Below are positions 1-63,035 of a DNA stretch of 64,000 nt, piece by piece. The DNA lies in assembly GCA_965178125.1 (NCBI GenBank), contig OZ237736.1, positions 1,612,001 through 1,676,000 of the forward strand, given 5' to 3'. How positions within the stretch are numbered: the stretch's first letter is position 1; every line of letters starts with the position of its first letter. Origin of the DNA: Bilabrum cf. latius (Eukaryota). The notes under the pieces are model-generated. The model was not told where the DNA came from, did no database searches, and worked only from the letters and a program-made list of their open reading frames with translations. Position numbers and translations under genes: made by a program.

Positions 1-3000
1 CCCCCTGCCTACGCGTCGGCCCCCTCGTCAGGGCCCGTGGCGGCGGACTTGCCCCTGGACGCCCCGCTCTGCGTGTCGCTGGTGCCCTCTGCCTGGCCAG
101 GCAACCTCGCCCGCATGCCGGCCTCGGCATCAGCCGCGCTGGGCTCCCGCCCGGACCGAGGCACCCGCTCCGGCACGGGCTCGGCGGCCGACCCGGAGTG
201 AGACCTCTCCGCGTCGCTGATGATCCCGGTCGCAGGCACCACCTCGTCCTGAGACACGTCCTCCTGTCGGGCGGAGGAGCCCCCTGCGCCGTCCTTGGGG
301 GCACCTGCCCCAGCTCGCCGGGCCCACGAGAGCCGGGACTGCATCTCAGGCCGCCAGCTCTGCCCGTGCTCCATCACTGAGGTCGAACGACGGCGAGACG
401 AAGAACCGGCTGCGGGACCGCTCGACTCATGCACGGATCCAGACGCCTGCGACACCTGCAACGAACCGCTCCCAAACGCCGAGGACTCTGCCCCGGGCTG
501 GTCGTGCGCGGAGTGTGCGGACCCATGGGCTGGCACCCCCTGCTGGCTCCTAGAGTGCCCCGGGGTCTCGTCAAGCAGCGACCGCCGCGAGCCCGAGACG
601 AGTGCTTCCACTTCTCCGCTGGGTCGCCGCTCACGCCTGCTCCTTGGTTTCCCTTGAGTCACCAGAACCGCCAGCCGGGGGGCCCGGGCGGACCCAGATC
701 TCACGTGCGTTGTCCCTTCATTGCGGCCCTGGGGCTGCTCCACGCGGTCCCCTGGGTCAAGCGGAGGTGTTGGAACGACCCCGATAGGCCCTCTGACGTC
801 AGTTCCGCTCGAGTCAGAGCTCCCATGTTCCACAGAGGGTGGGGCCGCTCGCAGACCGACGGAGCGCCGTTCCGACACAGGACTTGCAGCCCCAACCGCG
901 CTCCGCACCCGCGGCGGAGTGGCCACTGCATCGAAGGTACGCCTGCGGCCAATAAACGCACCCCTTGCACCGGGAGGTCCGTCGGCATCGGAGGCTGACG
1001 TCGGCTCCGTCTCGGATCCGCCAGTGGCGAGCCCCCTGCCCATGTCCCTGTCGACCGGCAGGTCAACGGATCCGAATCGGCTCTTGCGGTTGCCCCTTGC
1101 GCCCCGGGTGGAGGGCATTCCGCCCATGCTGCCGCCGCCTATGCCGTGCGATGTGCTCGACCACCCGCGGCGACCGGCCGGGCCGCCCCACGGCCGCTGT
1201 CTGCTCTGCGGCTGTGGAGTCCTGGACTCGCCGGGCCCGTGCCTGACCGCACGACCTGCCCCCGCGCTGATAGACAGACCCCGCTGGTGTGGCGAGCCTG
1301 CGAAACCTGCGGGAGACGCCGCCAGCGGTGAGCTAAAAGCATCCGCGGGAGACGTCATGGCCGCGGCGGCACCCATGAGTCCGAAGGAGAGGCCCGGCAT
1401 GGGGCCACCCACGGGTGTGCTGGCCGCATGAATCCTGGGAGACGGCACTTTGGAAGGCACGCGGCGGTGCCTCCGACGACCAGACAGCGTGCTGCTGTGT
1501 CCTGCCACGCTCCCGGACCGATGACTCCTTGTGCCTGCGGGCGAACCCAACTCCATGGGGCCACCGCCCCCGCCCCCGCCATCGCCATCTCTGCCACCAG
1601 TGCCTCTGCCCCCACTCGCGGCGGTAGCAGCGTCTCGGGTGCCGACGATCACAGACCGGCTGCGGCTGCGGGTCGCAGATTGTGACGAGTGCGATGCTAC
1701 TCCTGTCGTCGAGGCCGCAGCACCTCCAGCGGCCCGCCTCCCGCCCTCCGCGAGCATCCTGCCCTGCGAGGACCTGCGGCGGCTGCCAGGGGCCCTGTGC
1801 GTAGGGGTGGCCTGAGAGCTGGCAGCCATGTGCGTGTTGGTGATGCTGCGGTTCGAGTCCCCGGATTCTAGGGCCCCCCGGCTGTCCTTGCGACCAAACC
1901 CCGCGGTGGAGGCGCCACCGGTCGGTGTGCGCTGCCCCCTGGTCAGCTGGATCTCGGAAGCCGGAGGCAGGGCAGAGTCGCACCCTGTGACCCGTGGCAC
2001 CTCTCGCCCATCCCCGCGGGAGGAGCCTGCAGCCACTGATTGGGACCTGTGATCGCGACTGCTGGTGACTCGCACCCCAGTACCCGCGTCTTCCCCCGGC
2101 AGGGATGCGTCGGCGTCGGCGTCGCCCCCTTCGAATGGTGTGTGGGACTGGGACTGGGACCTCGAGTGGGGGTGCGGGTGAGGAACAGACCCCTGCATCT
2201 GCATGCTCAGCTGCTGCTGCTGCAGCATCTACTGCTGCTAGAGCATCTACTGCTGCATCTGCATCTGCATGGCCATGCTGTATCTCGCCAAACTGCCCAT
2301 CACCCCTGCGCCCACAGGCCCCTGCAGCGCCTCGGACGCTGGCAGCACGCTGCGACTGCCACGCATGTGCGACCGCCGTCTCCCTGCACCGCCGGCTCCG
2401 CCCGGTGTGCTGCCCCCTCCACCACTAGTCCCATGCCCGCTGAAAAACCACCCATGATGGCCTCCTGAGCTGCTCGTAGACCCCCCAGCGATCGCCCCCA
2501 GCTGGGGGGATCTCCCAGAATGCACCGGGGCCCGAGCTGCACCGAACATTCCGCCCATTCCGGCCCCAGGTGTCAGTGTACCGCCCATTCCCATCCCCAA
2601 CATGCTTCCTGGGCTTCGCACAGCGGACGGCATGGTGAAGTGTGACGAGGGCGACTCCACAGCCACCGACCTGGAGCGGCCTCTGGTTTGGGGCAACTGC
2701 AGTCCGCCCATGCCCAAGCCCACGCCCATCGGCTGTCGATCAGCCGCCCAGTTTTGCCCGCTGTCCTGCCTGCGCCTTCCCGCCCTAGACCCACCCCCAT
2801 CTCGATCTCGACCTCGATCTCGACCTCGGTCTCGGTCGCCCGTTCCCACTCCCCGCCCGCTGCCACCCCAGCCCCCACCCCCACCCCCGGTCTGCTCCCG
2901 GCCCAGCCGCCCCGCCGACGACCGGCGCCCCTCCGGCCCCCCGTGCCCAAGCCTGCTCCCGCTGCCCCCGCGCCGTGGGGCCTCTCTCTAGCTAGACCGG

Positions 3001-3644
3001 CCTCCCACCGAGTGCCCCGCCACACTACCCCCCGCAACTCCACCCCCTCCCCCCGGCGGCCGCCGCCTCTCTCTCCCCATTGCCATGCCACGGCTGCCCG
3101 CGGAGCCCTAGCGGTCCAGGCGAGAGGCCGGGGACAGCGCGCCCCTCTCTCCCGCCCGATCGGACTCGTCGCCTGACCCTCGCGCCCCTCGGTGGGGGAT
3201 GCCGCCCGAGCCGCCACGCTCCAGAATGCCGACGCTGCTGATCGAGGCACCGGTGGCAGAGGAGGCAGCTCGGCGATCCCGCACTCTTCCGTGCCGTGGC
3301 TGGTCCCTATCAGGCGTATGTGCCCCTGCCATTGCTGCAAATACCTAAGAGGATGACCGGGCGGCAGCGCCACTGCCACTGCCGTCGTCGGTGCCTTGAC
3401 CTGGTTGCATCGAGGCAGATCGAGAAACCATGGAAGGAATTGACATGGACGAGACGCGCCTACCATCTCTATACGATGCAAGCTACTATCGCGGTGATCC
3501 AGTATCGCCCTGTTGCACCATTCCGCTCCCAGTAGCAGATGCATGCGCATTCCGACCCGTGGATTCCAGCATGGCTGTGTGGACTGTCGAAGCCACCGAC
3601 CCACGACGCCGATCACTTTGCTGGTCCTGCTAGGGCGACGACAT
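1..3644 (-). CDS. Hypothetical low-complexity S/G/R/Q-rich protein, >1200 aa, 3'-partial (runs off the window), 10 in-frame TAG
   Basis: One frame runs from ATG 3644 (upstream in-frame TGA at 3720-3722) to the window edge. It joins ORFs 3108..3332, 2247..2849 and 9..2228. The only interruptions are TAG at 3630, 3486, 3483, 3345, 3108, 2988, 2247, 2238, 2229 and 9. No recognisable domain. Confidence 0.75.
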
Positions 3645-4260
3645 CACTGTATGTATTGCAATGAGGATTCGTGCGCGCTGACACACAACAGCACTGCGAA
3701 CGGCTAGGGTCGCTCCAAATCAGCAGTGTTCGGTGGGCCTCCCTGGCTGGTGTTCGAACCAGCTGCTGCAAGTGCGCAGCCGCCAGACCCGAGATAGCCA
3801 GTATTCAACTTGTATCGGCTGGCCTTACGTCCACAAAACGGGCCAGACGACAGGTTCTTGTGGAGGTAGACCTTGGCCTCGACTTCGCAAGCGGTTGCAA
3901 CCGGTTATCACTCGATTCGTGGTCGCAACTGAGTTCACGGTAGATCTATAGTAGGGGCAGCACTGCCTTGGCAAGTTGCCTTTGTGGAAGTTTGGGGGTT
4001 GTGGCCAGTAGAAGTTTGCAGCAATACGTTGAAAGTGCATCGAGGTGGGTGAGGCTTGGGGTGGCACTCGAGCTGGGCAACATGGTGAGTATCACCCACG
4101 TGGCGCGCCCGGCCGAACGTGTGCAGGTGTGTGGTATGGTGTTCGCAAGCGGCGCAATTTGCCTTGTATATCCTTGTTGCCGTGCGGGTGACGGTACCTC
4201 GTGGCCCCCCGCTGCCCCCTATCTTCATCTTCATCTACACCTTCATCTTCCACACTGTCT

Positions 4261-6051: not shown

Positions 6052-9000
6052 ATGGCAGCTCGTCTGGGGGTGACGGCTATTATGGCGACTTGGGCTGCGA
6101 CTAGATACTTTTCAGCCTCATCAAATGGTCCCAGAATGCGTGGGTCGCAGGTGTCCGGTGCTTAGGGTGCCGATGAAAATGAGCTCTCTTCCATTGAAAC
6201 CGACAGCGCGCTGGATGATTTGCGTGACTTGGTGATGCAGGCCGGTATCACTCGTGGACAGTCTCCGGCAATATCCTATGCAAGCGGACCGGCCTGGTAC
6301 GTGGTTGCGACGCCAGCTTCACGAGGCTTTCGAAGCAACAGTGATCGATAGGGCTCTTTCACGGGCACTGTCGGATCTAACGTGGAACCCGGTCAATTAG
6401 TAGGCGGATACCGGTCTCGATCTCCCTCTTTTATATCGTTTGTTGCTGAATTGCAGGCAGACAGCAGCAGGAAAGGATCCGACCAGTTCGGTATGCACGG
6501 CAGCGCTTTCAGGCATTCTTCCCAATTATCGGCAATCGGTATGTTAAGGGACATTGTTGCAGACCTTGATGCAGCTCTGGTTCCTGCATGGTCGGCGTTC
6601 CACGAGCCGAGCCCCCCTGGACTGGTTCCCGATCATCGCGGCTTTGGGCCATCGAAAGAGAGAAGTATCGCGGATGAAGGTATTCAATAGAGTACTCTTT
6701 TTCATGCCACTGCTTGGGCTGCACTGGAAGCCGCGGCAACTGGCACTCCCATGGATGCGACGGTTGGGCAAACGGAGGCATCCGCCCCGGACGACTCGGT
6801 GCCTGGGGGGGAGGCACCTGACCCGATCCTCGCCGAGGAGGCACCCAAGGGGTCTGCCCCTGCCCCAGTTGCCGTGGACCCATTGGTTGGACTTGCATCA
6901 TCGGCGAGCAGCACCGAGCAAGAGGCCGCCGGGGAGGCCCCCCCCCCCATGTCGGAGCTGACTCCGTGGGGCTCCTCCATGGCCGCCCAGCTGTCGCAGT
7001 GGACCTTCGGAGACCCCAGCAAGGAAACCGTCGCCTGCCTGCGTCGGGTGGAGAAGAAGTACGGCTGCCAGGCCGTGGGGTGTGACGACCAGGTGCAGGG
7101 GTTCATCAACTACCTGGCCACGCACGAGTGCACCATGGGGGAGGTGAACCTCAAGTGGCTCTCGTGGATCTGCATGATCGTCTGGCTCGTGTACCTCCTA
7201 TTCATGCTGGGAGACACGGCGGATGAGTTCTTCTGCCCCGTGCTGGACCAGATCGTGATCGTCACGCAAATCTCTCCAAACCTGGCGGGAGTCACCTTCC
7301 TGTCCCTCGGTAACGGGGCGCCCGACGCGGCCGCCTCCATCGCCGCCACACTCTCGGGGCAGCTGGATGTGGGCGTCAGCGCCGTCATCGGGGCCGGTGT
7401 CTTCGTGACCACGGTGGTGATCGCGGCGGTGATCCTCTCCAGCGAGGTGACCCTCAACCGGCGGCCCTTCCTGCGGGACACCATCTTCTACCTCGTGGCC
7501 ACGCTCTACCTCCTGGTTTGCTTCTCGGACAAGAAGGTGCACCTCGGGGAGGCCCTCGGCTTCCTCGGCATCTACGTCGTCTTTGGATCCGTGGTGGTGG
7601 TGGGCCGGCAGCTGTACCAGGGTTGGAAGGGCAAGGAGGCTGAGGAGCAGGGCGATCTGCTCGACATGGGGGCAGCGGGTGGCAAGGGTGCCGGCGCGAT
7701 GGTGGTACCTGCGAAGGGCAAGGTGCTCACGGCAGGTCCCGGGCCTAGCCCCCTGGGGACCAGCCGGCGGTCGCTGCTAGGCGACGGGCCGGCTGGCGGC
7801 AGCGGTCGAGCAGGAGCAGGTGGCGGGAGGTCGCGCGCCTTTTCGGACGAGTGGATGGCTTCGGAGCGGAAGACCGAGGTGGCGGCTCGGCTGCACGACG
7901 TCATGGAGGAGGAGGGCGATGAGGAGGACAGCGGGGCCGAGGGCGGGGAACAGGGACAAGGACAGGGACAAAGTCAGGCGGGCGAGTCATCGAGCGGGGC
8001 CGGGGTTGCTGCTGCTGCACCTGGCGCCGAAGACCGCAGCCCCAGCGCTGTCCGTCGGCACGCGAGCTGGAAAGACGCCAAGAACAGCGCCATGCGGTCG
8101 TCAGCCCGCTCGCTGGTCATGGGTAAGAAGCGCAGGTCGCTGCTGCCGGGAGACAAGGTGTTTGCCGAGGCGGCCGTGGAGGCGAGGACCGAGAGGGAGG
8201 CAGAAGTGGGGGGAGGCGCGGCGTCTGCCAGGAGCGGCCTCTCGCCGAGCCTACGCGAGGGGGGTGGTGCGGGCGCCCCGTTGCGGCTCCGCAGCGGCAG
8301 CCTGGTGGAGCGGGGTGACGGCTCCGGCGTGCACGGTGCAGTGGCGGCTGCCATCTTCGGTAGGCGCAAGAAGGGCCGGTCCCACAAGCACGCCAAGCAC
8401 GGGAAGGACGGGTACCACAAGCCGGCTGGGTTTTTCCACACGCATGAGAGGAGGGCCCGCATGTGGATGCGATTCGTGGTCGACGAGGAGAAGTCCATCC
8501 ATTCGGCGCGGGAGCGGGCTGCCAGGGGGCGCCAGTTGGGGGGGGGAGTCAAGGGTAGCTTGAACGTGGAGCACTCCGATGTCGCGAGCGACCGCCAATC
8601 GGACCAGGGCCCCGCCAAGTGGGACGAGAGCGGGGTGCCTCTGCTGCCCAGCTCCGACGGAGAGGGCGACGGCAGCGACGACGACGGAGAGGAAGAGGAG
8701 GCGGACATGTGCGATGCGTTCTGCGGAGACGACACGCTGCTGGGCAAGGCCCTCAACATGATCTTGTTTCCCAGCAACTTGCTGCGGCAGATCACCGTGC
8801 CAATGCTAGACGAGGACAGCTACGACTACCGATTCGTGGCGGTTACCACGTTCTTTGGGCTACCGTTCATGGCAGTGGTGGGGTACCAGACCATCGGGGC
8901 CGACCTCAGCGGTCTAACGGGTCCCATCCTACCGGGGGCCCCGGCGGGCGTGTGCGTGCTGCTGGTGCTCGGCCTCGTTGGGCTAGCCAAGAGCGTGGCC

Positions 9001-9615
9001 ATGTTCTTCACCCTTCCACGGGACGAGATCCCGCAGAGCTTCTTCATCGTAATCCCGCTACTGTTCCTCGGCTTCTTGACGAGCGTGTGCTGGATCATCG
9101 TTATTGCCAATGAGATCGTGGGGCTGCTGGAGGCTCTCGGCCTGCTGCTGTCAGTGCCGACCAGCGTGCTGGGGCTCACCGTGCTGGCCTGGGGCAACTC
9201 GCTGGGCGACCTGATCGCAGACATGACCGTGGCCAAGGAGGGCAAGCCCGAGATGGCCATCGCAGGCGCCATCGCAGGGCCCGGCTTCAACCTGGCGATC
9301 GGGCTGGGACTCAGCCTCGTCATCGGGGTGTCCAACCGCGTGGCTCAGCACGCGACCGACCCCTCCATTCCCCCGTACATCGACCTGACAAACCCGGACA
9401 ACACCACTCCGCTCCCGCCATCCTAGATCCGCGTGGTATGGACGCTGTTCGGGTTCTTGATCCTGAGTCTCGTGTCCATGCTCGTGATCGTGCCTCTGTC
9501 AAGCGACTCGTCCACCGGCAAGTACACCATGCCACGGTGGCTGGCCTACTACCAGCTGGCGTGCTACGCGGTATTCATGGTGCTTGCTTTCACCTTCACC
9601 TTTGCGGAGTTTTGA
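6052..9615 (+). CDS. Cation/Ca2+ exchanger (CCX/NCLX-like, CaCA superfamily), about 1187 aa, 4 in-frame TAG
   Basis: Alpha-1 repeat AGVTFLSLGNGAPD and alpha-2 repeat LGLTVLAWGNSLGDLIAD. The frame is open from ATG 6052 (cccaccATGG) except for TAG at 6163, 6349, 6688 and 9424. The last two TM helices (ORF 9433..9615) follow TAG 9424 in frame. Ends TGA. Confidence 0.9.
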
Positions 9616-19559: not shown

Positions 19560-21683
19560 ATGGCAGCCGTCGGAGGAGCAGTAGCTGCGACAGCAGTAAA
19601 AGAGTATGGTGCAGACGTGTTGAAGGCTTCTGAGGCGGAAACGAAGCCCATTGAGGGACAGAAGCCTGGTGAGTAGCCATGATTCGTTTGATCCATTCTG
19701 TGATCACCGCCTGTGCGCTTTTTGTGTCTCCTAAGCGGCACATAAAGTGACATCCAGGGTTGGGCTTGTAAAGGCATATGTACATCAGCTGGGACTGACG
19801 AGGCCCCTGCTCTCAATCAGTGCTGACAATTGTCGCCCAACTTGCTCCGCAATTGGGCGCAAGCACCTGATCGCAGCGAACGCCTGTACCCTTCTCTGTA
19901 GTTGCACGCAGGAACATCGGGTCTAAGGAAGAAGACGAAGGTGTTCAAGGAAACGCCAATGTACCTTGAAAACTTCGTGCAGGCTCTCTTCGATTCCGTC
20001 GACCTTAAGGGCAAAGCAATTGTCGTGGGAGGGGACGGACGATATTACAACGACGTAGCAATCCAAACCATTCTGCGACTTGCTGCTGGGAATGGGCTGC
20101 GCAAGGTGTACGTGGCTCACAACGGCCTGATGTCGACCCCGGCCGTGAGCGCCTGCATCCGAGCGAGGCGAGCATCGGACGGGAGCCAGGAGTGCGCCGG
20201 CGGTATCATCCTCACGGCCTCTCACAACCCTGGTGGCCCCGAGGATGACTTTGGCATCAAGTACAACGGCGAGAACGGCGGCCCCGCCAGCGAGAAGATC
20301 ACGAACGCGATCTACGAGCGCACGCAGAGCATCGACAAGGTGCGGCAGTGCAGTGATCTGCCCGCCGTGGACCTGGCCACCAAGGGGACCGTGCACCGTT
20401 TCGGCGGCGGCACCTTTGAGGTGGAGGTGATTGATTCGTGCGAGGACTACTGCGCGGTTGTGCTGCCGTGCTTCGACATGGAGGCCATCAAGGGCCTGCT
20501 GGCCAGGAAGGACTTCTCCTTCGTCTACGACGCCATGCACGGGGTGGCGGGGGTGTACGCCCAGCGCATCTTCGTGGAGGAGCTGGGGGCAGACCCCTCG
20601 AGCCTCATGCGCTGCGACAGCAAGGCCGACTTCGGTGGGGCGCACCCTGACCCGAACCTGACCTACGCCCCGGAGCTAGTCAAGAAGATGGGCCTGCAGA
20701 GGGACGGGACCCCCCTCCCGGCCGGGGATTGCAAGCCAGAGGAATGCCCCGTGTTCGGTGCCGCAGCCGACGGGGACGGGGACCGGAACATGGTGCTGGG
20801 GCGGCAGTTCTTCGTGACCCCCTCCGACTCGGTGGCCGTGCTGGCCGCGCACGCCTCCTCCATCAAGCAGTTCCGTGAGGGCGGGGGGCTGCGCGGGGCC
20901 GCCCGCTCGATGCCCACCTCGTAGGCCCTGGATGCGGTGTGCGCGGCGCGCGGCATCCGCTGCTTCGAGGTTCCGACTGGCTGGAAGTTCTTCGGGAACC
21001 TGATGGATTCCAAGGAGGTCTTCGGGAAGGAGGACTACACGCCCTTCCTCTGCGGAGAGGAGAGCTTCGGGACGGGCAGCAGCCACATCAGGGAGAAGGA
21101 CGGCCTCTGGGCGGTGCTGGCCTGGCTCTCGGTGCTCGCAGACGCGAACAAGGACACCAAGGAGGGCGAGCTGGTGGGTGTCGGGGACGTGCTGGGAGCC
21201 TTCTGGGGCGAGTTCGGGAGGAACTACTACAGGCGATACGACTTCGAGGGGGTCGAGTCCGAGGGGGCCAACTCGATGATGGAGCATCTGAGGGGACTCA
21301 TCGGGGCCGAAGGCAAGCCTGCGGGGGCGGCGGCCGAGGCGGGTGCTTCCTTCGCGGGGTACAGCGTGACGAGTGCGAGCGAGTTCGACTACACGGACCC
21401 GGTGGATGGGTCCGAGAGCAAGCGGCAGGGGCTGCGTTTCACTCTTGTTCCCTCGGGCGCCGCGGCAGGGGACAAGTCCTCGGAGGCTCGGGCGGTGTTC
21501 CGCCTGTCTGGCACCGGCAGCGCGGGAGCAACGATCCGGCTGTACCTGGAGTCCAGGCGGGAGGGGAAGGAGGAGCTGGGGCTGGCCGTTGATGGGGTGG
21601 TCGGGGAGGTGGCCAAGGCGGCGCTGGAGCTGTCCAAGCTCACCGAGTTCACAGGGCGGGAAGAGCCCACAGTGATCACGTGA
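19560..21683 (+). CDS. PGM: Phosphoglucomutase, about 626 aa, 1 in-frame TAG
   Basis: Exons 19560-19668 and 19912-21683 give GQKPGTSGLRKK. Motifs: catalytic ILTASHNPGG, metal loop DGDGDRN, ARSMPTS*ALD (TAG 20922), CGEESFGTG, FRLSGTG and C-terminal EPTVIT. Ends TGA. Confidence 0.97.
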
Positions 21684-21917: not shown

Positions 21918-23747
21918 ATGTCTCTCGTGTTCGATGAGTATGGACGGCCTTACATTATCATTAGGGAGCAGGGCTCCAAGACTAGGTTGAAGGGGATTGA
22001 GGCGTAGAAGGTGAGGCACCAGAGGACCGATGTTTGAGCAGGAGGTTCAAGCGAAAGGATGCAACCACAGTCCTTTTGAGCTATCTTGCGGTATTTTTTG
22101 CTTTACGCAGTCAAATATTTTGGCCGCTAGAACAGTTTCCAATATCTTACGAACATCGTTAGGACCGAAAGGTAAGGCAACGCTGCATGGCTTCGTTTGA
22201 GATTTCAGCCAAACCGCAATGGCATTCCTGTGCCTCTCCGATCTCCATGCGCCGATCAAGTCCACGCAGGAATGGATAAAATGTTAGTTTCACCTGATGG
22301 GGACGTAACCATTACAAACGATGGAGCTACGATTCTGTAGAAGATGGAAGTTGAGCACCAGGTAGCGCACCTGATGGTGGAGCTGTCGGCTTCTCAAGAC
22401 GATGAAATCGGGGACGGCACAACTGGTGTGGTAGTTCTCGCTGGCGCATTGTTGGAGCAGGCGGAGCACCTGTTGGACCGGGGAATCCACCCGATTCGCA
22501 TCTCGGAGGGGTACGAGCGGGCGTGCGATGTTGCCGTGGCTCGCTTGGACGAGATCAGTGACGAGGTAGCCTTCTCCGCGGACGACGTGGAGCCCCTGAT
22601 CAAGACCGCCATGACGACTCTGTCCTCCAAGATCGTGAACAAGAGCAAGCGCCACATGGCCGAGATCGCCGTGGGCGCCGTACTCGCCGTGGCGGACGTG
22701 GATCGCCGGGACGTCAACTTCGACCACATCAAGCTCGAGGGCCGGGCCGGCGGCAAGATGGAGGACACCGCCCTGGTGCGCGGCATCGTCCTGGAGAAGG
22801 ACTTCTCTCACCCCCAGATGCCCAAGGAGATCAAGGACGCCAAGATCGCCGTGCTGACCTGCCCCTTCGAGCCCCCCAAGCCCAAGACCAAGCACCGCCT
22901 CGAGATCACGAGCCCCGAGGCATACAAGGAGCTGCAGGCGCAGGAGGAGGCCTACTTCAAGGACATGGTCAAGCGGGTCAAGGACAGCGGGGCCAACATG
23001 GTCATCTGCCAGTGGGGATTCGACGACGAGGCCAACCACCTGTTGCTCACCAACGGCCTCCCCGCCGTCAGGTGGGTCGGCGGCGTAGAGCTGGAGCTGC
23101 TGGCCATCGCCACCGGGGCGCGCATCGTGCCTCGCTTCGAGGAGCTCGAGGAGCGCAAGCTGGGCAGCGCGGGCAGCGTGCGGGAGGTCTCGTACGGGAC
23201 CACGGCGGACCGCGCCATCATCGTGGAGGAGTGCGCCAACTCCAAGGCCGTGACCGTGTTTGTGCGCGGGGGCAACGCCATGGTGGTGGAGGAGGCCAAG
23301 CGCTCCCTGCACGACGCCATGTGCGTGGCGCGCAACCTGATCAAGGACAACCGAGTGGTGTACGGAGGGGGCGCCGCCGAGGTGGCGTGCGGGCTGTCCG
23401 TGGCGCAGGCCGCGGACAAGGTAGGTGGCATGGAGCAGTATGCCATGCGCGCCTTCGCGGACGCGCTGGAGGACATCCCCATGGCCCTTGCGGAGAACTG
23501 CGGCCTGTCGCCCATCGAGACCCTGTCCGAGGTGCGCAAGCAGCAGGTGGAGACCAAGAACCCCCGGCTGGGCGTGGACTGCATGGGCAAGGGCACCGAT
23601 GGGGCGGCCAGCGGCACGGCGGACATGAAGGAGCAGAACGTGTTCGAGACGCTCATCGGCAAGAAGCAGCAGCTGCAGCTCGCCACGCAGCTCGTCAAGA
23701 TGATCCTCAAGATCGATGACGTGATCGCCCCGGCCGAGTACGTCTGA
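21918..23747 (+). CDS. CCT5: T-complex protein 1 subunit epsilon, about 543 aa, 2 in-frame TAG
   Basis: Exons 21918-22010, 22111-22171 and 22270-23747. Reads [18 protein letters not shown]...KGIEA*KSNILAA...[11 protein letters not shown]...[10 protein letters not shown]...[14 protein letters not shown]...[14 protein letters not shown]...[13 protein letters not shown] at 22005 and 22338. Ends TGA. Confidence 0.97.
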
Positions 23748-25745: not shown

Positions 25746-28700
25746 TCAGACCCCTTCGGCCGCCCCTGCTGCACCGCTGGCCTTCTCCACGCGCGCACGC
25801 TTGCGACTGCCCGCCCCCACCCCCGCTGCCTTGCTCGCAGCAGCCCCTGCACCTGCTCCTTCCCTGGCTGCCCCACCGGCCGCGGCGAGGGCAGGTCTCC
25901 CCACTGTCCTAGTCACGGTGGAGACACCGTCTACGAACTTGGTCCGGAAAATCACGTTCGCGTTAGAGAACATCCCCTGCTTCAGCGAAACCACAATAAA
26001 CTGGGAGTGCGCGAAGTGGGCCTTGAGCATGCGCCCGATGTTCTGAGTGTGGCTCAGGTCTAGGGCGGCATCCACCTCGTCCAAAATGTACATGGGCGCC
26101 GGCTTGAAGAGCAGCAGCGAAAGGATGAGGCTCAGCGCCAGCAGAGACCTCTGCCCCCCCGACAGCTCCGAGAGCCCCTCCTTCCAGACGCCCCCGAAAG
26201 CCACCCGCACTTCGAGTCCCTTGAGCACCTCGCCGTCCACGGGGTCCAGCTTGGCCGAGGCACCCGGCAGCAGGGTGGAGAAGATGCTCCTGAAGTCCCC
26301 GTTGACCTTGGCCCAGGTCTTCTCCAGCGCCTCGGCCTTCTTGGCGTCTAGCTCCGCGATGGCCCTCTCGATCTTGGTGCGGTCCGCGACGATGACCTCC
26401 CTCTTGCTCTTGAGCTCGTGGTACTTGCTCGTCACTGAGTCGATGAGACCCATCACCTTCTTGTTCACGCTGCGCTCCAGCGAGCGGCTCTTCTGCTGCA
26501 GGGACTGCAGGCGCTTGGCCGCCTCCTGGGGGCTCCTGCTCTCGAAGTCGAAGGTCGTCGTGGGGTCGCCGAAGAACTGCTTCTGGCCTGCGATCCACTC
26601 GTGCTTGCGGTCCAACGCTCCCATCCGAGCCCGTGCGGCCTGCGCCTCCTTGCGAGCCGCGTGCCCCACCCCGGCCAGCCTCTTGGCCTCGGCCTGGGCG
26701 TCTCCCTCCAGCCTGGCAAGCTCCCGGCGGGCCTCCTCCCGGCCCTCCAGCGCCTTGCGCACGTCGTCCAGCGCCGCTTCGAACTCGCCCAGCCGCTCGG
26801 CGGCCTCGTCGTGCCTCAGCCGGAGCGACTCAGCCGCCGCCGACTCGTCCTCGGCCTTGCCCGCAGACACCTCCGCCGCCTTGCTCGCCGTTTCGAGGGC
26901 CTTGCTCGTCGCCTCGGCCTCCTCCCGCGCCGCCGCGAGCTCGCCCCTGGCAGTCTCCAGGCGCTCGGCCGCCTTGCCCGCCCCCTCCTCGGCGCTGGCA
27001 AGAGCCTCCCGGGCAGCGGCCAGAGTCTTCTCAGCCGCCTCCACGGCTCGCTGGCGGTAGGCCTCCGCGTCCTTCGCCTGCTCCGCGAGCTCGGCCGCCT
27101 CTTGCTCTGCTTCCTCAGCGGCTCGAGCCTTCTCGGCGGCCAGGTGCTCCTGCTCCTCTGCCTCTTTGCCGGCATCTACCAGGGCCTTGTGGGCCGCGCC
27201 AGCCTCGGTGGCCTCTGCCTGCGCCCGGGCCAGGGACAGCGCGTGCGCCGCCACCTCGGCCCCCGCCTTGGCCTTGGAGTGTGCCGCCCTCGCCCTCTCC
27301 GCCTCCTTGGCCGCCCCCTCCGCCTGGCTCAGCGCCTATGCCGCCTCGTCCCTCCGCTGCTCCACCTCCGAGAGGGCCGCCAGCTGCTCCAGCACGCCGC
27401 CCGCAGTGGGCCTCGAGCCGCCCTCCAGCGTCCCCGCCGGGTCGAAGATGTCGCCCTCCAGAGTCACGGCCTTGGCTTGCACGCCCTTGTCGAACGCCGC
27501 CCGCCGAGCCGCCGCCGCGTCCTCGCAGACCAGGTGGGACCCAAACACGTGCTCCATCGCGGGCCGCACATCGCTCCCGAAGGACACCAGCTCGATCGCG
27601 GGGTACGCCCGCCCGCCCGTGATCTCTCTAGCCCGCTGCACCCGCGCCGCTGGCAGCGTGCCCCTCCGGATCTTGGCGAGCGGGATCACGGTGATGCGCC
27701 TCCTCAGCTTGCCCTTGGACAGAAGGGCCCCGCCAACCTTCTCGTCGTCCACCACCACGTTGAACAGTCGCCCCCCCGCCGCCATCTCCACGGCAGTGGC
27801 GTGCTTCCCCTCTGGCACGCGCACCAGGCGAGCCACCACCCCGTGCACCCCGTCGCCGTCCGCAGCGCTACGCCCCGCGGCTCGCTGCACGGCCGCGCCG
27901 TCGTATTGCACCTGCACCCGGGCTCGCACCTGCGCCCCCACCCTCTCCGCCTCCTCGGCCAGCGCCGCCACCCTGCCCTTGGCCTCGTCCCGCGCCGCGA
28001 TGGCCTTGGCTGCAGCCTCCGGGTCGAATTCCAGCGCGTCCAGCTGGGCCTGCGCCGAGTCAGCCGCGGACTGCTTCTTCTGCAGCTCCGCCTCGAGCTT
28101 GGCCACGGCCTTGGCGGCCTTGCCTGCCTCCTTCCTGAGCTTGCCCTCCCGCTGCCGGGCGGCCTTGGCCCGCATCGTCGCGGCCTTCGACTCGGCCACG
28201 CCCGCCGCCGCCCGGGCCTTGGCGCGCATCAGACGGTCCTGCACGGTACCCCCGGACTCGTCCCCGGAACCGTCCGCAGCAGCGTCGGCGCCCGCGCCCG
28301 AAGCAGCGCCTCCAGCTGAAGACGATAAGGACGAGGACGAGGATGAGGCCATACCGGCAGCAGCTGCCCGCAGCCCGCCGTGAGCGGCCTCCACGGCCTG
28401 CCCCGCGCTCTCCGCCTCCGCCCTGGCACTGGAATCCGCCTCCACGGCCTCCTTCTCCGCCTCCTCCCTCTGCCGCACCGACGCCTCCGCCGCCTCGAGG
28501 GCCTTCTGCGCTGCCTCCACGGCCTTGGCGTCCCGTTGGGCGGCCTCCCGCCGGTTGGTGGCGCGGGTGTCTGCCTGCACGAGCAGCTTCGACAGGCGTG
28601 CTGCCTCGTCCGCTGCCAGCTTGTGTTCCCCCGTGGCCTCCGCCGTGGCAGTCGCCCTCAGCTCGTCCACCTCGGCCTTGCTCGCTGCCAGCTGCGCCTT

Positions 28701-29510
28701 GAGGTCCGCCGCCTCCTGCTCCTTGCCCTTCGCATCGGCCAGGGCCTGTTCCGAGGCCTCTGCCTTGGACTCTGCGGCCTGAGAGGCACTGTGGTACTGG
28801 TGCGCCACCACAAACCGCTCCAGAGTGGCGATCTCCTCCGCGGCTGCCGTGTACTCGAGGTAGGCGGTCTGGTCGTTCCGGAGCTTCTCGATGGTGGGTG
28901 TTATTTCCTTGCTGAGGATGTGGTTGATCTCCTGCACCTTGGCGTCCTTCTTTTCGATCGTGCGGATGGCTGCCTGCTTGCGGGCCTCGTACATGCGAGT
29001 GCCCGCGGCCTCCTCCACCATGCCTAGGATCTCGATCGGCCGCATGTTCAGCACCTTCGTGATGCGACCCTGCATGATCAAGAAATGCGGATTATCCACA
29101 TTAAGCTGCACCGAGTGGAACAGTGTCTGCACCCTAGAAGCCTGGGCGACATGACCATTGATGAGATACTTGTTCCGTCCGCCAATTGCAATTTGTCTGG
29201 TTACAGTGATCGTTGTCATGTCCTAGTACCCCAAAGGCGACTGCTTCGGGTCGCTGTTATCAAAGACAAGCGTGACAGAAGCCTTCGTGACGCCGGCTTG
29301 GCCCTGCTTGTACACGAGCTCCTGCAGAGAGGAAGCACGGACCTGGCTCAGGTTCCGGATGCCTAGCACAAAGCAGATCGAATCCAGAATGTTCGATTTA
29401 CCGCTGCCATTCAAGCCAGTAATAGCATTGAAGTGCTTGTCGAAGCCAGAGATGACTGTTCTCGTCGCATAGGACTTGAAGCCGTCGATAATAATTTCTC
29501 GAATGTGCAT
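25746..29510 (-). CDS. SMC2: Condensin subunit SMC2, about 1254 aa, intronless, 2 in-frame TAG
   Basis: Motifs: IIDGFKSY, Walker [50 protein letters not shown], hinge [17 protein letters not shown], signature [12 protein letters not shown] and Walker [12 protein letters not shown]. Three same-frame ORFs are joined by TAG at 29223 and 27336. Ends TGA. Confidence 0.97.
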
Positions 29511-35994: not shown

Positions 35995-38900
35995 ATGTTT
36001 AGAACAGAGACGCTCACGTAGAGTATTATTTCTGTTCCTCGCGTTCTGATCGAATGTGTTCCGAATGTGTTGTGGTGGATGGCTGAGCTGCTCTGTGATC
36101 TCGGGATGCCTTTCGTCGAGCTTTTTGGGATCCTTCGGCATCGTAGCGACCCCAACTTGCCTCGGGAAGGGTTTCAGTACTTTCCAGAAGAGTGGTTGTA
36201 GGCATGGTTCATAGCAAACGTCTTGATATGTCTGGGCTTAACGCTAGTGTGCATAGCAATCCTAAGAACGTACCATAGCCACATTCTCCAGGTCGCATCG
36301 AGGCTGCTTATTCGAGATCGCTTCTCATAGCATCTAATTTAGAATCTTGGACAGTATGCAAGTGGGTCGGCAGCTGTGCCAGCCCTCGTAGTGTAGATCG
36401 TGGCGGCCCTGCTGGACAACCTCGTGGCCCCCACGTCGGTGATAGAAACCAATGACCAGCTCCAGCAGTACCGAACAGACGCAATGAACTACACTGCTGG
36501 TGGCAGAGCGTGGCACGAGCTCATGCAGCAGCAGTCCAAGGGTCCTGCTATTTCCACACATGAGCTCGGCGACACTCGCTGGGAGTAGATCCCTCCCATC
36601 CTCGGGCTCGACTACGACCTGTCAACCAGCGCCAGGTTTGCAGAGGGGTGGGCCTCCTGGACCAAACATTTTACTATGGTCCTTCAGGGGCTCGGGGTGG
36701 CGGGCGTGTTCTTCTACTCCCTGCTTTCCCTGCAGCCCGCGTGCAACCGCGTGGGCAAGGACGCGCTGGGAGAAACCTGCGATCCGTGGTGCAAGTGGTT
36801 TGCGCAAGCACCGGAAAAAATCACCAATAAGGAAGAACGGAAGGCCGTGAAAAAGCACCTGGCGTAGAATGCGGGTGGCTATCCCTTCGAGAGGATGTGG
36901 CCAGTTACCTGGGTCCTTGTGTGCATCGCGGCATGCTTCGTGGGTCCGTTCCTACTGAGCTGGATGCTCAACGGAATGGAGGGTTTCTTCGCCTTCCTGC
37001 TCTGGCTTGGTTGCACCCTGCTGTATTACGAGGGCATGCTTCCCACCGCCCAGCTGGACCCAGCCCTTGCCATGGGGGTGGTGACGCTGCTCTGGGGGGC
37101 TGTCGTCGTGGTAGACGTGGCCTTCATCAATCCGCTTGGGCACATCTTCGAGCTGTTTGTGGTGGCATCTATCTACTTTGTTGTGCTGAGCTCGCCCACG
37201 TTTCGATGCGTTGCCATCCCCACGTGCTCGAGCCAGGGGAAGCGCTAGGCCTGCGCCAAGCTATGCGCGCCACAGCCCACTCCCAAGCACATAGTGCAGT
37301 GGCTGCTGTTTGGACTGTTGTGCCTCGCTAACGGATTCACTAGGATTTCCGATCCGTGCATCGCGGGCAGCAACTTGCGACTCGTCGATGTGCTCTACGT
37401 GGCGCTGCATCCCCGGCAGATGCTGTTTCTGCAGATCGTCTTGTTGGGCTTTATCGAGCTCGGCGTGGCTGAGCTGGGGGCGGAGTGGGGGGAACAGGCC
37501 GCCGGCAAGTTCATGACATACATAAAGAAAGGAGCCAAGGATGCGAAGGAGTTGCACAGACAGCAGCAGGACTTTGAGAACGAAGAGGACATGCAGCTCA
37601 ACGAGGAGGACAACCAGCTCAAGAAGATCATATAGCGTGCGATTGGCAGCTGGACGGACGGGAATCATGAGCTTTTTTCTCAATTCTGCGGTTCGTTCGT
37701 GGAAGTCTCAGTCGTCATCCTTGTGGGCCTGTATGCAGTGGCCGTGGGCAGGGGCGTGTCGCACCGTCTGGCTGGCCATGCCCGTGCGATGGGTCTGGAA
37801 TCGGCCGTAGAGCGGTGCAACTACGCCATTCGGTAGGTGGAATTCGATCTCGATGAATATGAGCGGTATGGACACAGCAGAGAGAAACACCCGAGATATA
37901 CCGACCTCATGGAAGTCCGCTCAGGCCGTGCATTATGTGACACTTTGGATGATAGCACTGGGGAACTGCCGGCCGGTCTGCCCTGGGGCTCATATGCTCT
38001 GGACGCGCTGCTGGATGGGAAAGGGCCTTCGGTGGTGCTACTCAGCTGGCCCATGGCACTCGCAGTCAACGGACTCGCGCTCATGATCATCGTATTCGTC
38101 GCGTTGCAAGGGTATTACGCTGGCACAGCTGTAAGCGGGCCGCTTGCGATCATGCACAGCGTGTCCCTCGAGAGCAAGCAGCTTACTAGGGCAAGTCTGA
38201 GACGAGTGAATCAGATCACTGCAAGCGCAACGAGCTAGCGCGCTCGTCCAAGCCTCGCTGCCGTTGGAGGCAAGGCCACCTGCATGCACCCTGTCATCGA
38301 CGACGACGATGTCGTCGCTCCTGCACCGGACGGAGATCGAAGTCGTCGAATGGCCTTTACGTCAGCATCAAGGGGCCTTCGTGAGCTAGTTCAATCGATC
38401 GGTGAAGTATCTGGAAGTGTAGAGAGCGCAGCCAGAGTAGTTGCCCGCACTGCCTTAAGATCGGTTGGTCTTCGTGAAAGTGATATCAGTACCGCCATGG
38501 ATGCCGTCCAAGCGGCGTCGCAGCACCGTGAGGCCCTCTAGAAGCGCCGGGAGGACAGCTCAGACGAAGATAGCTCAGAGAAAGAGGAGCAAGCCCCACC
38601 GAGCGACGATGGCGTAGCTTCGCGCCAGTATTTGGCTGGCCCCCCTAGTGGTGGGGATGCTGACGGGGGTAGCGTCGTTGCTTCTGGCAGCAATGCGGCC
38701 GCAGCTATCAGGCGGCGCCGACATTAGAATACTGCCTCCGAAGCGAGCTCGAACGGCTCGATATTAGCCAATTTCCTACGTCCAGGCACCGAGGCAGAAA
38801 GGAGAGCCGAAGACTGCCTGGTGGGTGCAACAACCGCTGCGATCCACAGCGGACAACTTGCTCGCCAAGATAGCCCGAGCGGTGAGGTACCGTTGCCTGA

Positions 38901-40833
38901 CAAGACTGCTACAGATCCATATGCATTGCAGAATGTCGGTGTCGACATCGTGCGAGGAGATCAGTCCCTCATGAAGCTCCTCGTTGCGGTGGCTGACAGT
39001 CAGCCCCCTCAGGTAAGCCTCGGTTAGCTTGAGGCCATCTTCCACGTCGAAGTTCCAGTCAGGAACAGCGGCAAGCGCCCACTGTGGGTAGATCATATGC
39101 AGTTACGAGTCGAAGCGCACAGTCACGCCGATGGGGGCTCCATTTCCGCGCATCAAGATGGGTGCTGCCGGTCGCGCTTGAAGGACCTTCAGAAGTGCTT
39201 CCGAAACGAGGAAGGCTCTCCATTGAGCCAGAAGCTCGAAGATGTAATTGACATATTGCATGAAGCTATCACTCAGTTCAGACGGTACTTGCAGTACGAC
39301 TGGCTTGGCCACTCCAGCGGCTAGAGATGCTTGGGCGTCCTGGCTGCAGTGGAGTCAATGCCGTTTGACGGCGACGACTAGGACGGGCGTGAAGGAGGAC
39401 CTGGAGGAAAGCGCGAAGGAAGCTCCTCTGAGCAGCACAAATCGGCAGCAAGCGGCGCAGAGCCAACTCAGCCGTCACCTTCAAGTTATCGCCTACGTGG
39501 TGCCTAGATGCACCCAGATGCGGGGCGAAACATGATGTGGCGAAGGACTCAACACATTGGAATACCACCGGTTCGGAGAAAGCATGATAGGCGTGATCCT
39601 GCGCGCGGCCCTGCTCATTTCGTGGAGCCGACCCATGTTCGAGTTCGTGTGATTCTGGACCTTGACTTGTTGCACGTGGTGATTTCCAAGAACCCTGCGC
39701 TGTATAAGGGTGCTTTAATGTGGGTGGATCGAGCACGGGCGATTTCAGGGCTCGTGAAGGATACTATATCTCAGGTCAAGGCTGCTGGTGCCCGGTTCTT
39801 GTAGTGGACCGGATTCACTACGTCAGGTACAGGCTCAGATGCCGACAGTGCCGAAAGTAGTGAGCAATAGGATGCAGTTTAGGGACCGAACCATCTCATA
39901 GAGCGCCTTTCCGGGCTCCTTCACTCGCTCCATGTCTCCATGCATTCAACCGGAGGCAATGATTTGTGTGGACTGCGGCGATGCTTCGGTGGACCAGTGC
40001 ATGGCAGCACCGTGACCGAGCTGGCGCGCATCGTGCTTGCAGGCGAAGGCCAGGACGTTGAAGTTGAAGATCTTGGTGAAGGAAAACGTTTTCTCCACAC
40101 CTTGATGGTGGAGGCGTCCCAGCTGTACATGCAGTCAAGCGTCGATACAGAGATCGACGAGATTTAGGGGCTGGTTGGCATCCATGAGCAGCCTCATCTG
40201 GAGGCAGCTATGCTGCTGAAGTAGTTGCAGCACGGACTTACCGACCGATACGCGGCGGAGGCGAAGAAATCATTTGGGGTGGTGATGGCTGCTAACTAGT
40301 GGAGACGTCATGCATCAGTGCAAGGCTGCAACGTGACTAATGCAGCGTCTCACATGCAATGCATTCGAAGGACCGCCAAAGTGTCGTCGAAGAATGCGAG
40401 TGGAGTCGAGCGGCAGCAACCAGGCTCCACCATGTCGCGTGACTGCTACAGTCACTTGAGGCATGCTACGGAATCTCTATTGCTTGTGTATGGATCCTTG
40501 ATCATCATGCGCCAGGACGTGCTGACCGCATGGCCTGATGTCGCTCAGGACGACGCTGGTTTCACAGAAGGTGAAATTGCAGGTGCCAGAGAAGTCTATG
40601 ATGGTATCAACAGGCAGCTGGCCAAGGTCGAACGCGCACTGCAGGCTGTGATATGGCAAGGTGCGATCGTTTTCCTTCACAGCGGTGCCGTTCATAGCGC
40701 ACACGCCTTCTTTCGAGGGAGTCGCGGCGAAGCAGATGACTAGTCTGAGTTGTTGGCGTGGGTAAGAGCACTGGGTCTCGTTGTGCTGGCAGCCAGCAAG
40801 TACGGACTGAGGATCACCAACCCGGATGGGTAA
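35995..40833 (+). CDS. Large orphan multi-pass membrane protein, about 1600 aa, 24 in-frame TAG
   Basis: Eleven short ORFs (36400, 36676, 36895, 37294, 37837, 38284, 38821, 39097, 39508, 39940, 40318) lie in one frame. I read the gaps and found only TAG, no TAA or TGA, between ATG 35995 (or 36079) and TAA 40831. That TAA could instead belong to a GTAAGC intron donor. Several hydrophobic segments in the N-terminal half. Confidence 0.75.
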
Positions 40834-55934: not shown

Positions 55935-57131
55935 TCACCCGAAAGGCAGCAGGCGCTCTTTGGCCGCATTGAAGGCCTCCCTGGTCGCGAATCGCTGGCC
56001 CGTCCTTCGCTCCTTGAAGCGAGCAGGGAGGCCAGTCACCACGCAGCGTCGCCGCGCCGGCCGGAGTGGAGGCCCGGCTGCCGCCGCGATGTACGCGTTC
56101 CTGCTGCTATCATCAGGACCATGGGCGCCTCGGCCGCTCTGGAAGTCCTCGTCGCCCTCGTCACGCATGGCGCTCTGGCCAGCCCTGGCAGAGGCAGAGG
56201 CAGAGGCAGAGGCTGCAGAGGCACCGGACGTGCCCTCCGTGCCAGCGACCTGGACACGGCGGCCTGCGAACGCATCCCCGAAGACAACCGCACCCAGTGC
56301 AGCCGCGCTGCCGTGCTCCGGCGGTCGTGCTGCATCCCCAGCGCGGGCGGCCTGCCAAGCGGCCAGGCCGGCAGGGAGGCATGAGCTGCCCGTCGGCAGG
56401 GGGGCAGAGGGGGGGCGGTGCAGGCGCCCCGATGCATGCTGTGCAGCTGTGGCGGATGCACGCTGCAGGTCGTCTAGTGTCGGACCCAGGGGCTGGTCTC
56501 GGTCGAGAGCGGCTCCGAGTGGGACCAGCGGGCGCGAGCCGAGGGCGAGGGCGTGGTGGGCGGGGAGCGAGGCGCTTGCCGTCGGGCCTCCCCGCCGTTT
56601 CGGCTTTCTCCGGGTCTTTGCTCTGGATTTACCCTTTCGCTTACTTCCTTTTGGCCCGCGCTTGGCGCCTTTTCCGCCCGAAGCCCCAAAGTCGGCGTCA
56701 GAATCTGAGCCGTCGCTGTCCTCAAGGCTGAACTCGTCGTCGTCATCAACCGCATCGCCTCCCATGCCGGTACCAGCATTACCATAACCTCCCATTTCTT
56801 CAACTGCCGCTTGGGTAATTGCCCCCCGCATGCGAACCATGTCTGCTTCCAGGGCGCTGGTTCTTGCGTCTGCTCCAAGCCCCAGCCAAGCCGGGACCCT
56901 CTCCACTCCTCCGACGGCATCGACCCAAGCCCATCCTGCGCCAGATGTGGCAGCAGAGTCAGCATCTCGAGCTCTCTGCGAGGCTCGCCTTGCCCTCTGT
57001 CCTGCGCCCTTCTTTTGAGCAGCGATGCCTCGATTCTACCCAGATCGTTCTGTCAGCATCTTCTGCGCCCCTTTATGACCCGATGCAGCCATTGCTTCGT
57101 CCCATGCCCTCCGTGCAGCCTTTCCCGACAT
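55935..57131 (-). CDS. SWR1/INO80 chromatin-remodelling subunit (SWC6/ZNHIT1-like region with a YL1_C-type C-terminus), 1 in-frame TAG
   Basis: ATG 57131, TAG 57036. RTSALEAD, an acidic tract and a basic tract are followed by YIAAAAGPPLRPARRRCVVTGLPARFKERRTGQRFATREAF. Ends TGA. Confidence 0.7.
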
Positions 57132-57306
57132 GTTTTTCGAGTGCCAATCCTTGTATTAGCTTGTCTAGCATCTGTCTGCGGAGGGGTCCACTGCAACGGG
57201 CAGTGCGCTGCAGGTGCACAAGAAACGTGTGTTGTTTTGCAGGAAGCCGGACCACCTCACCAGCATGCCGTGAAACTATTATCTTGGTTATATTGAGATA
57301 CCAGCC

Positions 57307-61500: not shown

Positions 61501-63035
61501 GACCGCAGGCCGGGACGCACAGCCTGGCCTTCCAATCCGCCAGCCAGCACGACTCGCCCGTCCTGGCCCCAACCTGCACCCTCCGCGGCAGCTGCAGACT
61601 CAGATCCTCCGGCCATACGCGCCCGGCGCATCTTCTCTGCCTCCAGCAGCGCAGACAGCTCCTACTGTGCGGTCTCTTCCTCGGTGCGGGCCCTGTCCGT
61701 GGCGATGGCGCGCGTATGCTGCGCAAGTGCACCCAGCAGCGACTCAAAATCGTCGTCATCGTCATCGTCATCAGCGGGTTGAGAAGCGGGGCCAGGTTTG
61801 CCGTTCTTCTTTGCTCGACCTCCGGCCTGCTGCTCCTGCTCCTGCTCCTGCTCCTGCTACCCACCGGTCTCGTGGTCGTCATTCCCATCATCACCCCCAT
61901 CCGAGCTGTCGCTGTCACTGTCGCTGTCGCTGTCGCTGTCACTGTCGCTGCCACCACCACTCTCGCTACCACCAGCGTGTGCCTCAGGCCTACCAGTGGC
62001 GGTGCGAGCAGCCTTGGCTGGCCGCTCTGCGTCCTGCCCAGCTGAACCCCCCCCTTGGGTACCCTATGCAGTGGCTTCCTCCGAGCAGCCACCGCCAGTC
62101 TCAACTGCACCTGCTCCTGCTCCTGCCGCTGCAGCCGCCGCCGCCTCTGCCCTCTTGCGTTTCTTGCCGATCCAAGGCCGGCTCCCCTCCCTATCATCTG
62201 CCGTGTTCCCCACAATGGCCTTGGCCCTAAGCGTGGCAAGCACATCGTCCGCCTCCTGGTCCAGCCTGCCGAGGGCCTCATCCATGGCCACCTTCTCGCG
62301 GCGGGCCAGTGCCTTGCGCTCCTTGTCGCGGGCGATCACCTCTGCGATCACCTCGCTGCGGCTCTTGCGAGGGGCATCATCTTCCTCCTGTTCATCGCTG
62401 GGGCCCCTTTGAGAGGCACCTGCAGGGCCACTGCTGGCAGAAGCGGCCCCTGCACGCTGTTGTCGTTCCATCCAAGCCGGGAGCGGCTTCACACCACGCA
62501 TCGGGGCTGCGCTCTGGGAAGCAGCCTGCCCCCCACCGAAATGAAGATTCGCAACCCAATCCGCACTGAGACCCTCGCGGTCGGTCTCTGCTGCTTTGTC
62601 GTCAAAATCGAATCGATCGGCAGCTCCCCGCCCCTCCTGCTGCATTTTCCCGTAGTCATCGTCCCGCAGAGCTCTCCCAAAATGCGTCAATGGCTCCGCA
62701 GGTCCACCTTCAGTGTCATCATCCAGCTAAAATTTCTACTTTTTCTTGCTGCGTCTTGCTCGCTGCAGTTGCCGCTGCCGTTCCCTCTAGGCTCTTGCAA
62801 GCATGATCTCTTCCTAATCTGCGGCGGCATCGTCTGCTTTCGCACCAATCCTCCTATCATCAAACTGGTTTGATTTGCCAAGGGCGCGGTATTCCGGCAG
62901 AAGCTCCCTCTTTCTTTTCTTGACAGCCTTGTCCCTAGCTGCAGCGACATTGCGGGACGACCCTCGAACTCTACGATTCAAGACATCAAATCGCTAATGC
63001 TTGTTGGCACGCGATTCAAATGGATTGGATGACAT
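58599..63035 (-). CDS. NOP14: Nucleolar protein 14 (SSU processome), about 1478 aa, intronless, 12 in-frame TAG
   Basis: MSSNPFE...KSNQFDDRRIG...EEIMLARA*RERQ...LTHFGRAL, NLHFGG, KSRSEVIAEVIA, ATDRARTEEE, LPFVLPCP, FPASDFQHVIATP and REKRAVARELRQDSAFLA. TAG at 62994, 62814, 62787, 62736, 62727, 62064, 61857, 61662, 61023, 60876, 60048 and 59832. Ends TGA. Confidence 0.92.

Follow-up and report, generated by a model that had tools for sequence, protein, structure and literature searches.

Does UAG specify glutamine in the nuclear code of the organism described here? The question arises from a glutamine-rich repeat in a stretch of 64,000 nucleotides of Bilabrum cf. latius (GenBank assembly GCA_965178125.1, contig OZ237736.1, positions 1,612,001 to 1,676,000 of the forward strand), which was analyzed as a whole and is referred to as the window. 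In this repeat, at 2211..2270 on the minus strand of a low-complexity gene designated LC1, in-frame TAG codons stand at positions that a neighboring repeat unit fills with CAG. A first-pass annotation, made from the letters alone, took this interchange as evidence that UAG encodes glutamine. That reading is supported by our analysis, mainly through evidence from outside the repeat; the argument from the repeat itself is weak when taken alone, and fits glutamine without proving it. In all likelihood, UAG is a minor glutamine codon in this organism, with UGA and UAA as terminators, giving a code of the NCBI table 15 type, and the TAGs of the repeat are ordinary glutamine codons in a long low-complexity protein.

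UAG is a sense codon, and UAA and UGA end genes

Translated with the standard code, the window contains no open frame of at least 1000 aa, the longest being 911 aa. Freeing TAG yields eight such frames (2043, 1797, 1619, 1490, 1463, 1259, 1241 and 1239 aa), while freeing TGA yields one (1023 aa) and freeing TAA none. In 14 genes with a total of 14,977 codons there are 88 in-frame TAGs, and neither TAA nor TGA occurs in frame. About 19 in-frame TAAs would be expected if the TAA:TAG ratio tracked that of CAA:CAG (98:454).

Pfam domain envelopes enclose ten of the TAGs. The eight genes concerned are those for CCT5, phosphoglucomutase (PGM), SMC2 (two TAGs), the Na/Ca exchanger (Na_Ca_ex), the CNNM transporter, the Ras-like GTPase (two TAGs), a Methyltransf_16 protein and the sulfatase. 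The intronless SMC2 gene (25749..29510, minus strand) carries its two TAGs between the N- and C-terminal ATPase halves, and residues 1-1202 of the protein align with solved SMC2 chains across both. The main exon of CCT5 (TCP-1 epsilon; 22272..23747, plus strand) contains one in-frame TAG and ends in TGA, and the main exon of PGM (19911..21683, plus strand) contains one in its SMPTS-x-ALD motif. Four are found in the Na/Ca exchanger gene (6052..9615, plus strand), one of them within the second Na_Ca_ex domain, 12 in the Nop14 gene (58599..63035, minus strand), and one (57038-57036) in the gene with a YL1_C domain (55935..57155, minus strand). The richest is g9 (35995..40833, plus strand), a gene of 1612 codons for a membrane-like protein, with 24 in-frame TAGs and a TAA at its end.

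Thirteen complete frames were delimited, of which 11 end in TGA and two in TAA. CCT5, PGM and Nop14 end where their homologs do, and none of these three genes of the 64 kb ends in TAG, although UAG may terminate occasionally. UAG is a sense codon in this DNA; UAA and UGA are not sense codons and still end genes.

TAG codons are retained in RNA-type contigs

Contigs from four sequencing runs were compared with the window. Run X1 is DNA. The kind of runs X5-X7 is not on record, and these were taken to hold RNA because they show nine intron-type joints (GT..AG or CT..AC ends, reads on 1-20000) that X1 lacks. The introns in this interval are short (88-243 bases) and lie mostly near the 5' ends of genes.

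In five genes, the contigs listed from X5-X7 cover at least 11 TAG codons, none of which is interrupted by a joint or altered in any letter. These include the three TAGs of the repeat, as well as three of the four TAGs of the Na/Ca exchanger gene, which are covered by X5 record 11. Splicing, editing and assembly error are excluded for the 11 covered sites, where the run kind is inferred and a single contig could derive from DNA.

This result bears on the view that the TAGs act as genuine stops or never reach translation, as would be the case with pseudogenes, introns, UAG-to-CAG RNA editing or sequencing errors. One TAG first counted in frame, at 19899-19901 upstream of PGM, did prove to be intronic and was dropped. 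At the 11 covered sites, however, the TAGs are unchanged in the same runs that show the nine spliced introns, and DNA and RNA-type contigs agree. Moreover, the essential single-copy genes SMC2, CCT5 and Nop14 would all be broken if their TAGs were stops, and g9 holds 24 TAGs yet not one TGA or TAA in 1612 codons. The probability of this explanation is negligible.

Two further features of the Na/Ca exchanger gene were seen in the contigs. A joint at 7133-7216, with CA..AC ends, leaves out 82 bases, a length not divisible by three. It occurs in each of the four runs, the DNA run X1 among them; it was rejected as an intron and represents a length variant or an assembly overlap. A contig from X7 differs from the window at 13 places in 7266-7350, 12 of which are spaced in multiples of three bases. 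This contig may come from a second allele or from a close strain, with differences at synonymous sites.

Proteins of relatives identify glutamine as the probable meaning of UAG

The proteins of relatives provide a direct test of the code, because standard-code gene callers cut them at TAG. TAG/Gln pairs with close relatives come chiefly from g9, whose database relatives appear as pieces of 33-263 aa. An exhaustive search with its first 1200 residues against 1.84 billion representatives returned only nine proteins, all of them fragments and mostly from TAG-using relatives. A metagenome scan with P0133 additionally yielded a contig of 5242 bases, L001; a scan with the g9 fragment P0123 yielded nothing. 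L001 shares a gene neighborhood with the window (Nop14, g16-like and YL1_C genes) and has in-frame TAGs of its own. Its proteins are 55-62% identical to those of the window, with a lower value of 38.9% for the g16-like gene.

The tally of TAGs paired with a residue in the homolog was restricted to true coding frames and to ungapped sites flanked by at least eight identical residues. It leaves out five gapped pairs, the intronic TAG upstream of PGM, and ORF pairs of L001 and the window that are off frame. Among the 15 pairs that qualified, the partner of TAG was Q in eight, S in three, and E, N, A and L in one each. Chance does not explain this frequency of Q, because only about 3.7% of codons are CAG or CAA. 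BLOSUM62 scores summed over the pooled sites were 39 for Q, 17 for E and 12 for S, and below 10 for all the other residues listed.

In the fragments of close relatives (88-95% identical), a window TAG stands opposite Q at five of eight sites, and opposite E, N and S once each. The g9 fragments, which are 88-89% identical, account for six of these sites, at which they have Q three times and E, N and S once each, and a Nop14 relative of 729 aa (95% identical) has Q at both of the window TAG sites that it spans. The ends of g9 fragments, which correspond to stops in the relative, fall on a window Q in two cases and on a window TAG in three.

A TAG of L001 falls opposite a window CAG four times, at 59027-59025 in Nop14, at 56999-56997 and 56978-56976 in the YL1_C gene, and at 55661-55663; three of the four are well-aligned sites. 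Other L001 TAGs are opposite CTT, TCG and, in a weak alignment, AAC, and one window TAG is opposite TCT in L001. Weaker pairs, kept outside the 15-pair tally, comprise an L001 TAG opposite a window Q (flank of six identical residues), an L001 TAG opposite N (flank 5), a Q of fragment P0127 at g9 site 291 (flank 6), an E of P0131 (flank 3), and a window TAG in the g16 leader opposite Q (flank 4).

The use of TAG also varies with base composition. Across genes, its share of glutamine codons drops with the G+C content of third codon positions (GC3; rho -0.72, p = 0.004), as expected of an AT-richer synonym in a GC-biased genome. In the proposed clade of TAG users, CAG and TAG would still be replacing each other freely, with TAG at the less constrained sites.

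A reading of UAG as another amino acid, for which other variant codes give Glu, Ser and Leu as examples, could draw on the non-Q partners at seven of the 15 well-aligned sites (S three times; E, N, A and L once each) and on the deeper alignment columns, where E is the commonest residue for CCT5 (34 of 120) and G dominates for PGM. Against this stand the eight Q partners, given how rare glutamine codons are, the lead of Q in the BLOSUM62 sums, and the four occasions on which a relative's TAG falls on a window CAG. In addition, the modal partner in fragments as close as 88-95% identity should be the encoded residue itself, and this is Q. We consider a different amino acid very unlikely. On the comparisons made here, glutamine is by far the best-supported meaning of UAG.

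The arrangement of L001 differs in part from that of the window. The Nop14, g16-like and YL1_C genes occur together in L001 in another order and orientation, and L001 seems to be without the methyltransferase gene located at 57274-58476 in the window.

The repeat and its three TAGs

The minus strand reads ATG CAG ATG CAG ATG CAG CAG TAG ATG CTC TAG CAG CAG TAG ATG CTG CAG CAG CAG CAG from 2270 to 2211. The codon string of the first-pass annotation is exact from 2264; the full stretch begins one ATG CAG earlier, at 2270. Three in-frame TAGs, at 2249-2247, 2240-2238 and 2231-2229, form codons 491, 494 and 497 of the frame 3719..3 and are read as Gln. The M/L/Q repeat at 2211..2270 is rendered as MQMQMQQQMLQQQQMLQQQQ when translated with table 15, and the NCBI table 15 translation of the repeat is MQMQMQQQMLQQQQMLQQQQLS.

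The core of the stretch is a tandem repeat at 2214-2256, with a period of 18 bases, 2.4 copies, 92% matches and a score of 72 (Tandem Repeats Finder). At the protein level its unit is M-L-Q-Q-Q-Q, and TAG stands where the next unit has CAG. The previously proposed alignment of the unit ATG CTC TAG CAG CAG TAG with ATG CTG CAG CAG CAG CAG is borne out, 15 of the 18 bases being in agreement. Two of the three differences are T/C changes that turn CAG into TAG. The TAGs of the repeat are not assembly errors: over the repeat region, no difference from the window is seen in the DNA contigs of run X1 or in X5 record 9, an RNA-type contig that covers window 1-2738.

Contig depth over 2002-2668 is inflated by cross-matching of CAG repeats, and depth was not used to rank expression. 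Joints at 2239>4431 and 2238>2208 were rejected as introns and are repeat artefacts.

The repeat fits glutamine and does not prove it, because C-to-T changes within a run of CAG codons create TAG irrespective of its meaning. The argument that the repeat gives the amino acid by itself, without an outside database, is weak. The enrichment of glutamine codons beside in-frame TAGs, which had been predicted along with it, is also weak in the genes of the window: CAG or CAA occupies seven of 156 TAG flanks in 13 genes with LC1 excluded, against a baseline of 3.6% (p = 0.34). With LC1 included the count was 11 of 176 flanks (p = 0.06). The proof of glutamine comes from homology, and the repeat shows only that CAG to TAG changes are tolerated in a sequence that most likely is coding.

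LC1 is most likely translated through the repeat

LC1 (3..3644, minus strand) has at least 1214 codons from its first ATG and runs off the left end of the window. Once TAG is sense, its frame is open from 3719 to this end, with 10 in-frame TAGs, no TGA and no TAA. The other TAGs named in the first-pass annotation were confirmed in the same frame as the repeat. One, in the motif SP*QDQQ (3630..3632, minus strand; SP*QDQ at 3632-3630), is codon 30 in the frame of LC1. Codons 78-79, where the frame is less secure, are the tandem TAG TAG (3483..3488, minus strand).

By codon usage, the LC1 frame is the best or tied for best in 12 of 12 sub-windows. The tie, with another frame, extends from about 3419 to 2820. 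The upstream TAGs of LC1, the tandem pair included, are less secure than the three of the repeat, because from about 3419 to 2820 this second open frame has an equal score.

It could be argued that UAG is a sense codon but that the TAGs of the repeat are not translated, the gene starting at the ATG at 2228-2226 and the repeat being a 5' untranslated leader, silent about the code. A frame listed as 9..2228, beginning after the TAG at 2231-2229, is indeed open for 739 aa under the standard code, and LC1 has no homolog or domain that would fix its start. Codon-usage scores are low throughout LC1, with the tie at 3419-2820, and an overlapping open frame of 356 codons is an example of the long open frames to which this GC-rich DNA gives rise.

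Translation of the repeat, on the other hand, rests on several observations. The LC1 frame remains free of TGA and TAA for 497 more codons upstream, to 3719. In the sub-window that holds the repeat TAGs it scores best, with 0.04 versus -0.35 and -0.11 bits per codon for the other frames. The 18-base repeat stays in frame across the supposed start at 2228. Finally, RNA-type contigs extend upstream beyond 2228, one of them reaching at least 2738 without a break, so that a very long leader would be required. The region of the repeat is also not intronic in these contigs, X5 record 9 running unbroken across 1-2738. A start downstream of the repeat is therefore improbable, and the repeat is most likely coding sequence.

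Observations that weigh against the assignment

Several observations count against UAG as a glutamine codon, or against its use as such in the repeat. No tRNA gene was found in the 64-kb window or in the 5242 bases of L001. TAG sites are less conserved than other glutamine sites: in the same close alignments, five of eight TAGs are paired with Q, versus 49 of 53 CAG/CAA codons. The CCT5 column contains E 34 times, Q 27 times, A 24 times and other residues 35 times in 120 sequences, Q not being the commonest, and the PGM column has G, Q, G and G in four distinct solved sequences. The enrichment of glutamine codons beside TAG is not significant without LC1 (7/156, p = 0.34). For LC1 itself, a second frame is equal by codon usage upstream of about 2820, no Pfam family is matched, and no homolog was found in a search among proteins of 667-2125 aa. 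No record states what kind of run X5 is, and its contig across the repeat might in principle derive from DNA.

The lower conservation suggests, as far as these alignments go, that TAG codons accumulate at weakly constrained positions. Together with the mixed deep columns, it fits a young codon at substitution-tolerant sites, and these data favor no other single residue.

Gene content of the window and placement of the host

The window has a G+C content of 63%, and most of its genes are single long exons. Its eukaryotic housekeeping genes are those for SMC2, CCT5, phosphoglucomutase, Nop14, the Na/Ca exchanger, the CNNM transporter, the Ras-like GTPase, a WD40 protein, the sulfatase, a serine carboxypeptidase and the YL1_C protein. 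The window is nuclear DNA of an intron-poor, GC-rich eukaryote. No Rfam family was found in it.

To place the host, a FastTree phylogeny of CCT5 was built with the 120 best database hits. The window protein falls in a clade of 29 tips (support 0.96), in which Bicosoecida sp. CB-2014 is the only named member. This clade nests in a stramenopile clade with oomycetes and diatoms (support 0.92). The host is probably a bicosoecid-related stramenopile, as judged from a single-gene tree with few named tips.

Other features of the window were noted. The CCT5 frame begins at the equivalent of human residue 57, and a first exon must lie upstream, past an intron (window 22176-22271, plus strand). No solved-structure match was obtained for Nop14 at 1e-5. 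Two very large genes, at 35995-40833 (g9; plus strand, 1612 codons) and 41208-47237 (minus strand, 2010 codons), have no Pfam match and have membrane-like N-terminal parts. An open frame at 4738-5973 (minus strand), also without a Pfam match, consists in part of about a dozen tandem SDPRAAAA copies and contains five in-frame TAGs; the segment 4559-4741 (CT..AC) is spliced out in RNA-type contigs. At 11400-11640, the depth of X1 contigs is high (287.1 in the bin 11340-12006, versus about 8-15 in most bins), with many loose ends and a 17-base stretch that is replaced at 11424-11481. The whole interval 11400-11640 probably represents an intergenic dispersed repeat or mobile element.

Proposed mechanism

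The three TAGs of the repeat most likely arose from CAG by C-to-T transitions, which would be synonymous in this code, the protein reading MQMQMQQQMLQQQQMLQQQQ. By analogy with known codes, UAG would be read by a tRNA-Gln with the anticodon CUA, derived from tRNA-Gln(CUG), and eRF1 would have lost recognition of UAG. According to the account in PMC5304391, only a tRNA with a CUA anticodon reads UAG while ignoring UAA; the simplest way to such a tRNA is to duplicate tRNA-Gln(CUG) and change the anticodon once, and in UAG-only codes eRF1 has to stop recognizing UAG. The eRF1 gene is not in the 64-kb window.

This code is common to at least three sequence-distinct relatives. The clade in question would consist of the organism of the window, the 95%-identical relative, and a more distant relative represented by the 88-89% identical protein fragments and by L001. 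It may constitute the first variant nuclear code in stramenopiles, a proposal that we make tentatively and hold to be a little short of an even chance. In a full-text literature search, with hits judged by abstract and accounts of the 2025 assembly outside its coverage, we found no report of UAG reassignment in stramenopiles, bicosoecids, labyrinthulomycetes or MAST lineages. The case is a real UAG-to-Gln reassignment of a known kind, apparently in a lineage without an earlier report.

Variant nuclear codes are known from a handful of eukaryotic lineages, and a change of UAG with UAA kept as a stop is rarer still. UAG-only changes bear on how the recognition of UAG and UAA by release factors can be uncoupled, and a further independent case would provide a point of comparison outside ciliates and metamonads. 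If the assignment is correct, this organism offers a young, GC-rich and intron-poor system for watching the capture of a stop codon, and the close relatives with the same code, together with public DNA and RNA data, would make the changes in tRNA and eRF1 directly testable. On the practical side, standard-code gene calling fragments the genes of this organism, and their annotation and phylogenomic use need table 15.

Comparison with known variant codes

Among the codes listed in PMC11687900, reassignment of UAG alone to Gln occurs in two phyllopharyngean ciliate lineages, Protocruzia tuzeti and Iotanema spirale, and reassignment of UAR to Gln in many ciliates, Ulvophyceae, Hexamita, Streblomastix and Amoeboaphelidium. 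UAG is assigned to Leu in a rhizarian (exLh) and in some ciliates, as described in PMC5304391 and PMC11687900.

The code of the window resembles the UAG-only glutamine codes, as these are presented in the same two sources and in NCBI table 15 ('Blepharisma nuclei'), in that UAG is read as Gln and UAA and UGA are kept as stops. Unlike the hosts of such codes, the organism of the window is placed by CCT5 among stramenopiles, beside a bicosoecid, rather than among ciliates or fornicates, and its DNA is GC-rich (63%).

With the UAR-Gln codes (table 6 type) it shares the meaning of UAG, and the mechanism is likely to be the same, by way of a mutated tRNA-Gln anticodon. It differs from them in that UAA is not a sense codon: TAA is absent in frame from all 14,977 codons and closes two of the genes, and no long frame is extended by freeing it.

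The UAG-Leu codes of the rhizarian exLh type likewise have UAG alone reassigned and UAA kept as a stop. However, Leu is the partner at one of the 15 TAG pairs of the window, versus eight for Gln, and is absent from the 120 sequences in the CCT5 column. Finally, unlike codes in which all stops are reassigned or are context-dependent (Blastocrithidia and Condylostoma type), the window shows no in-frame TGA and no in-frame TAA.

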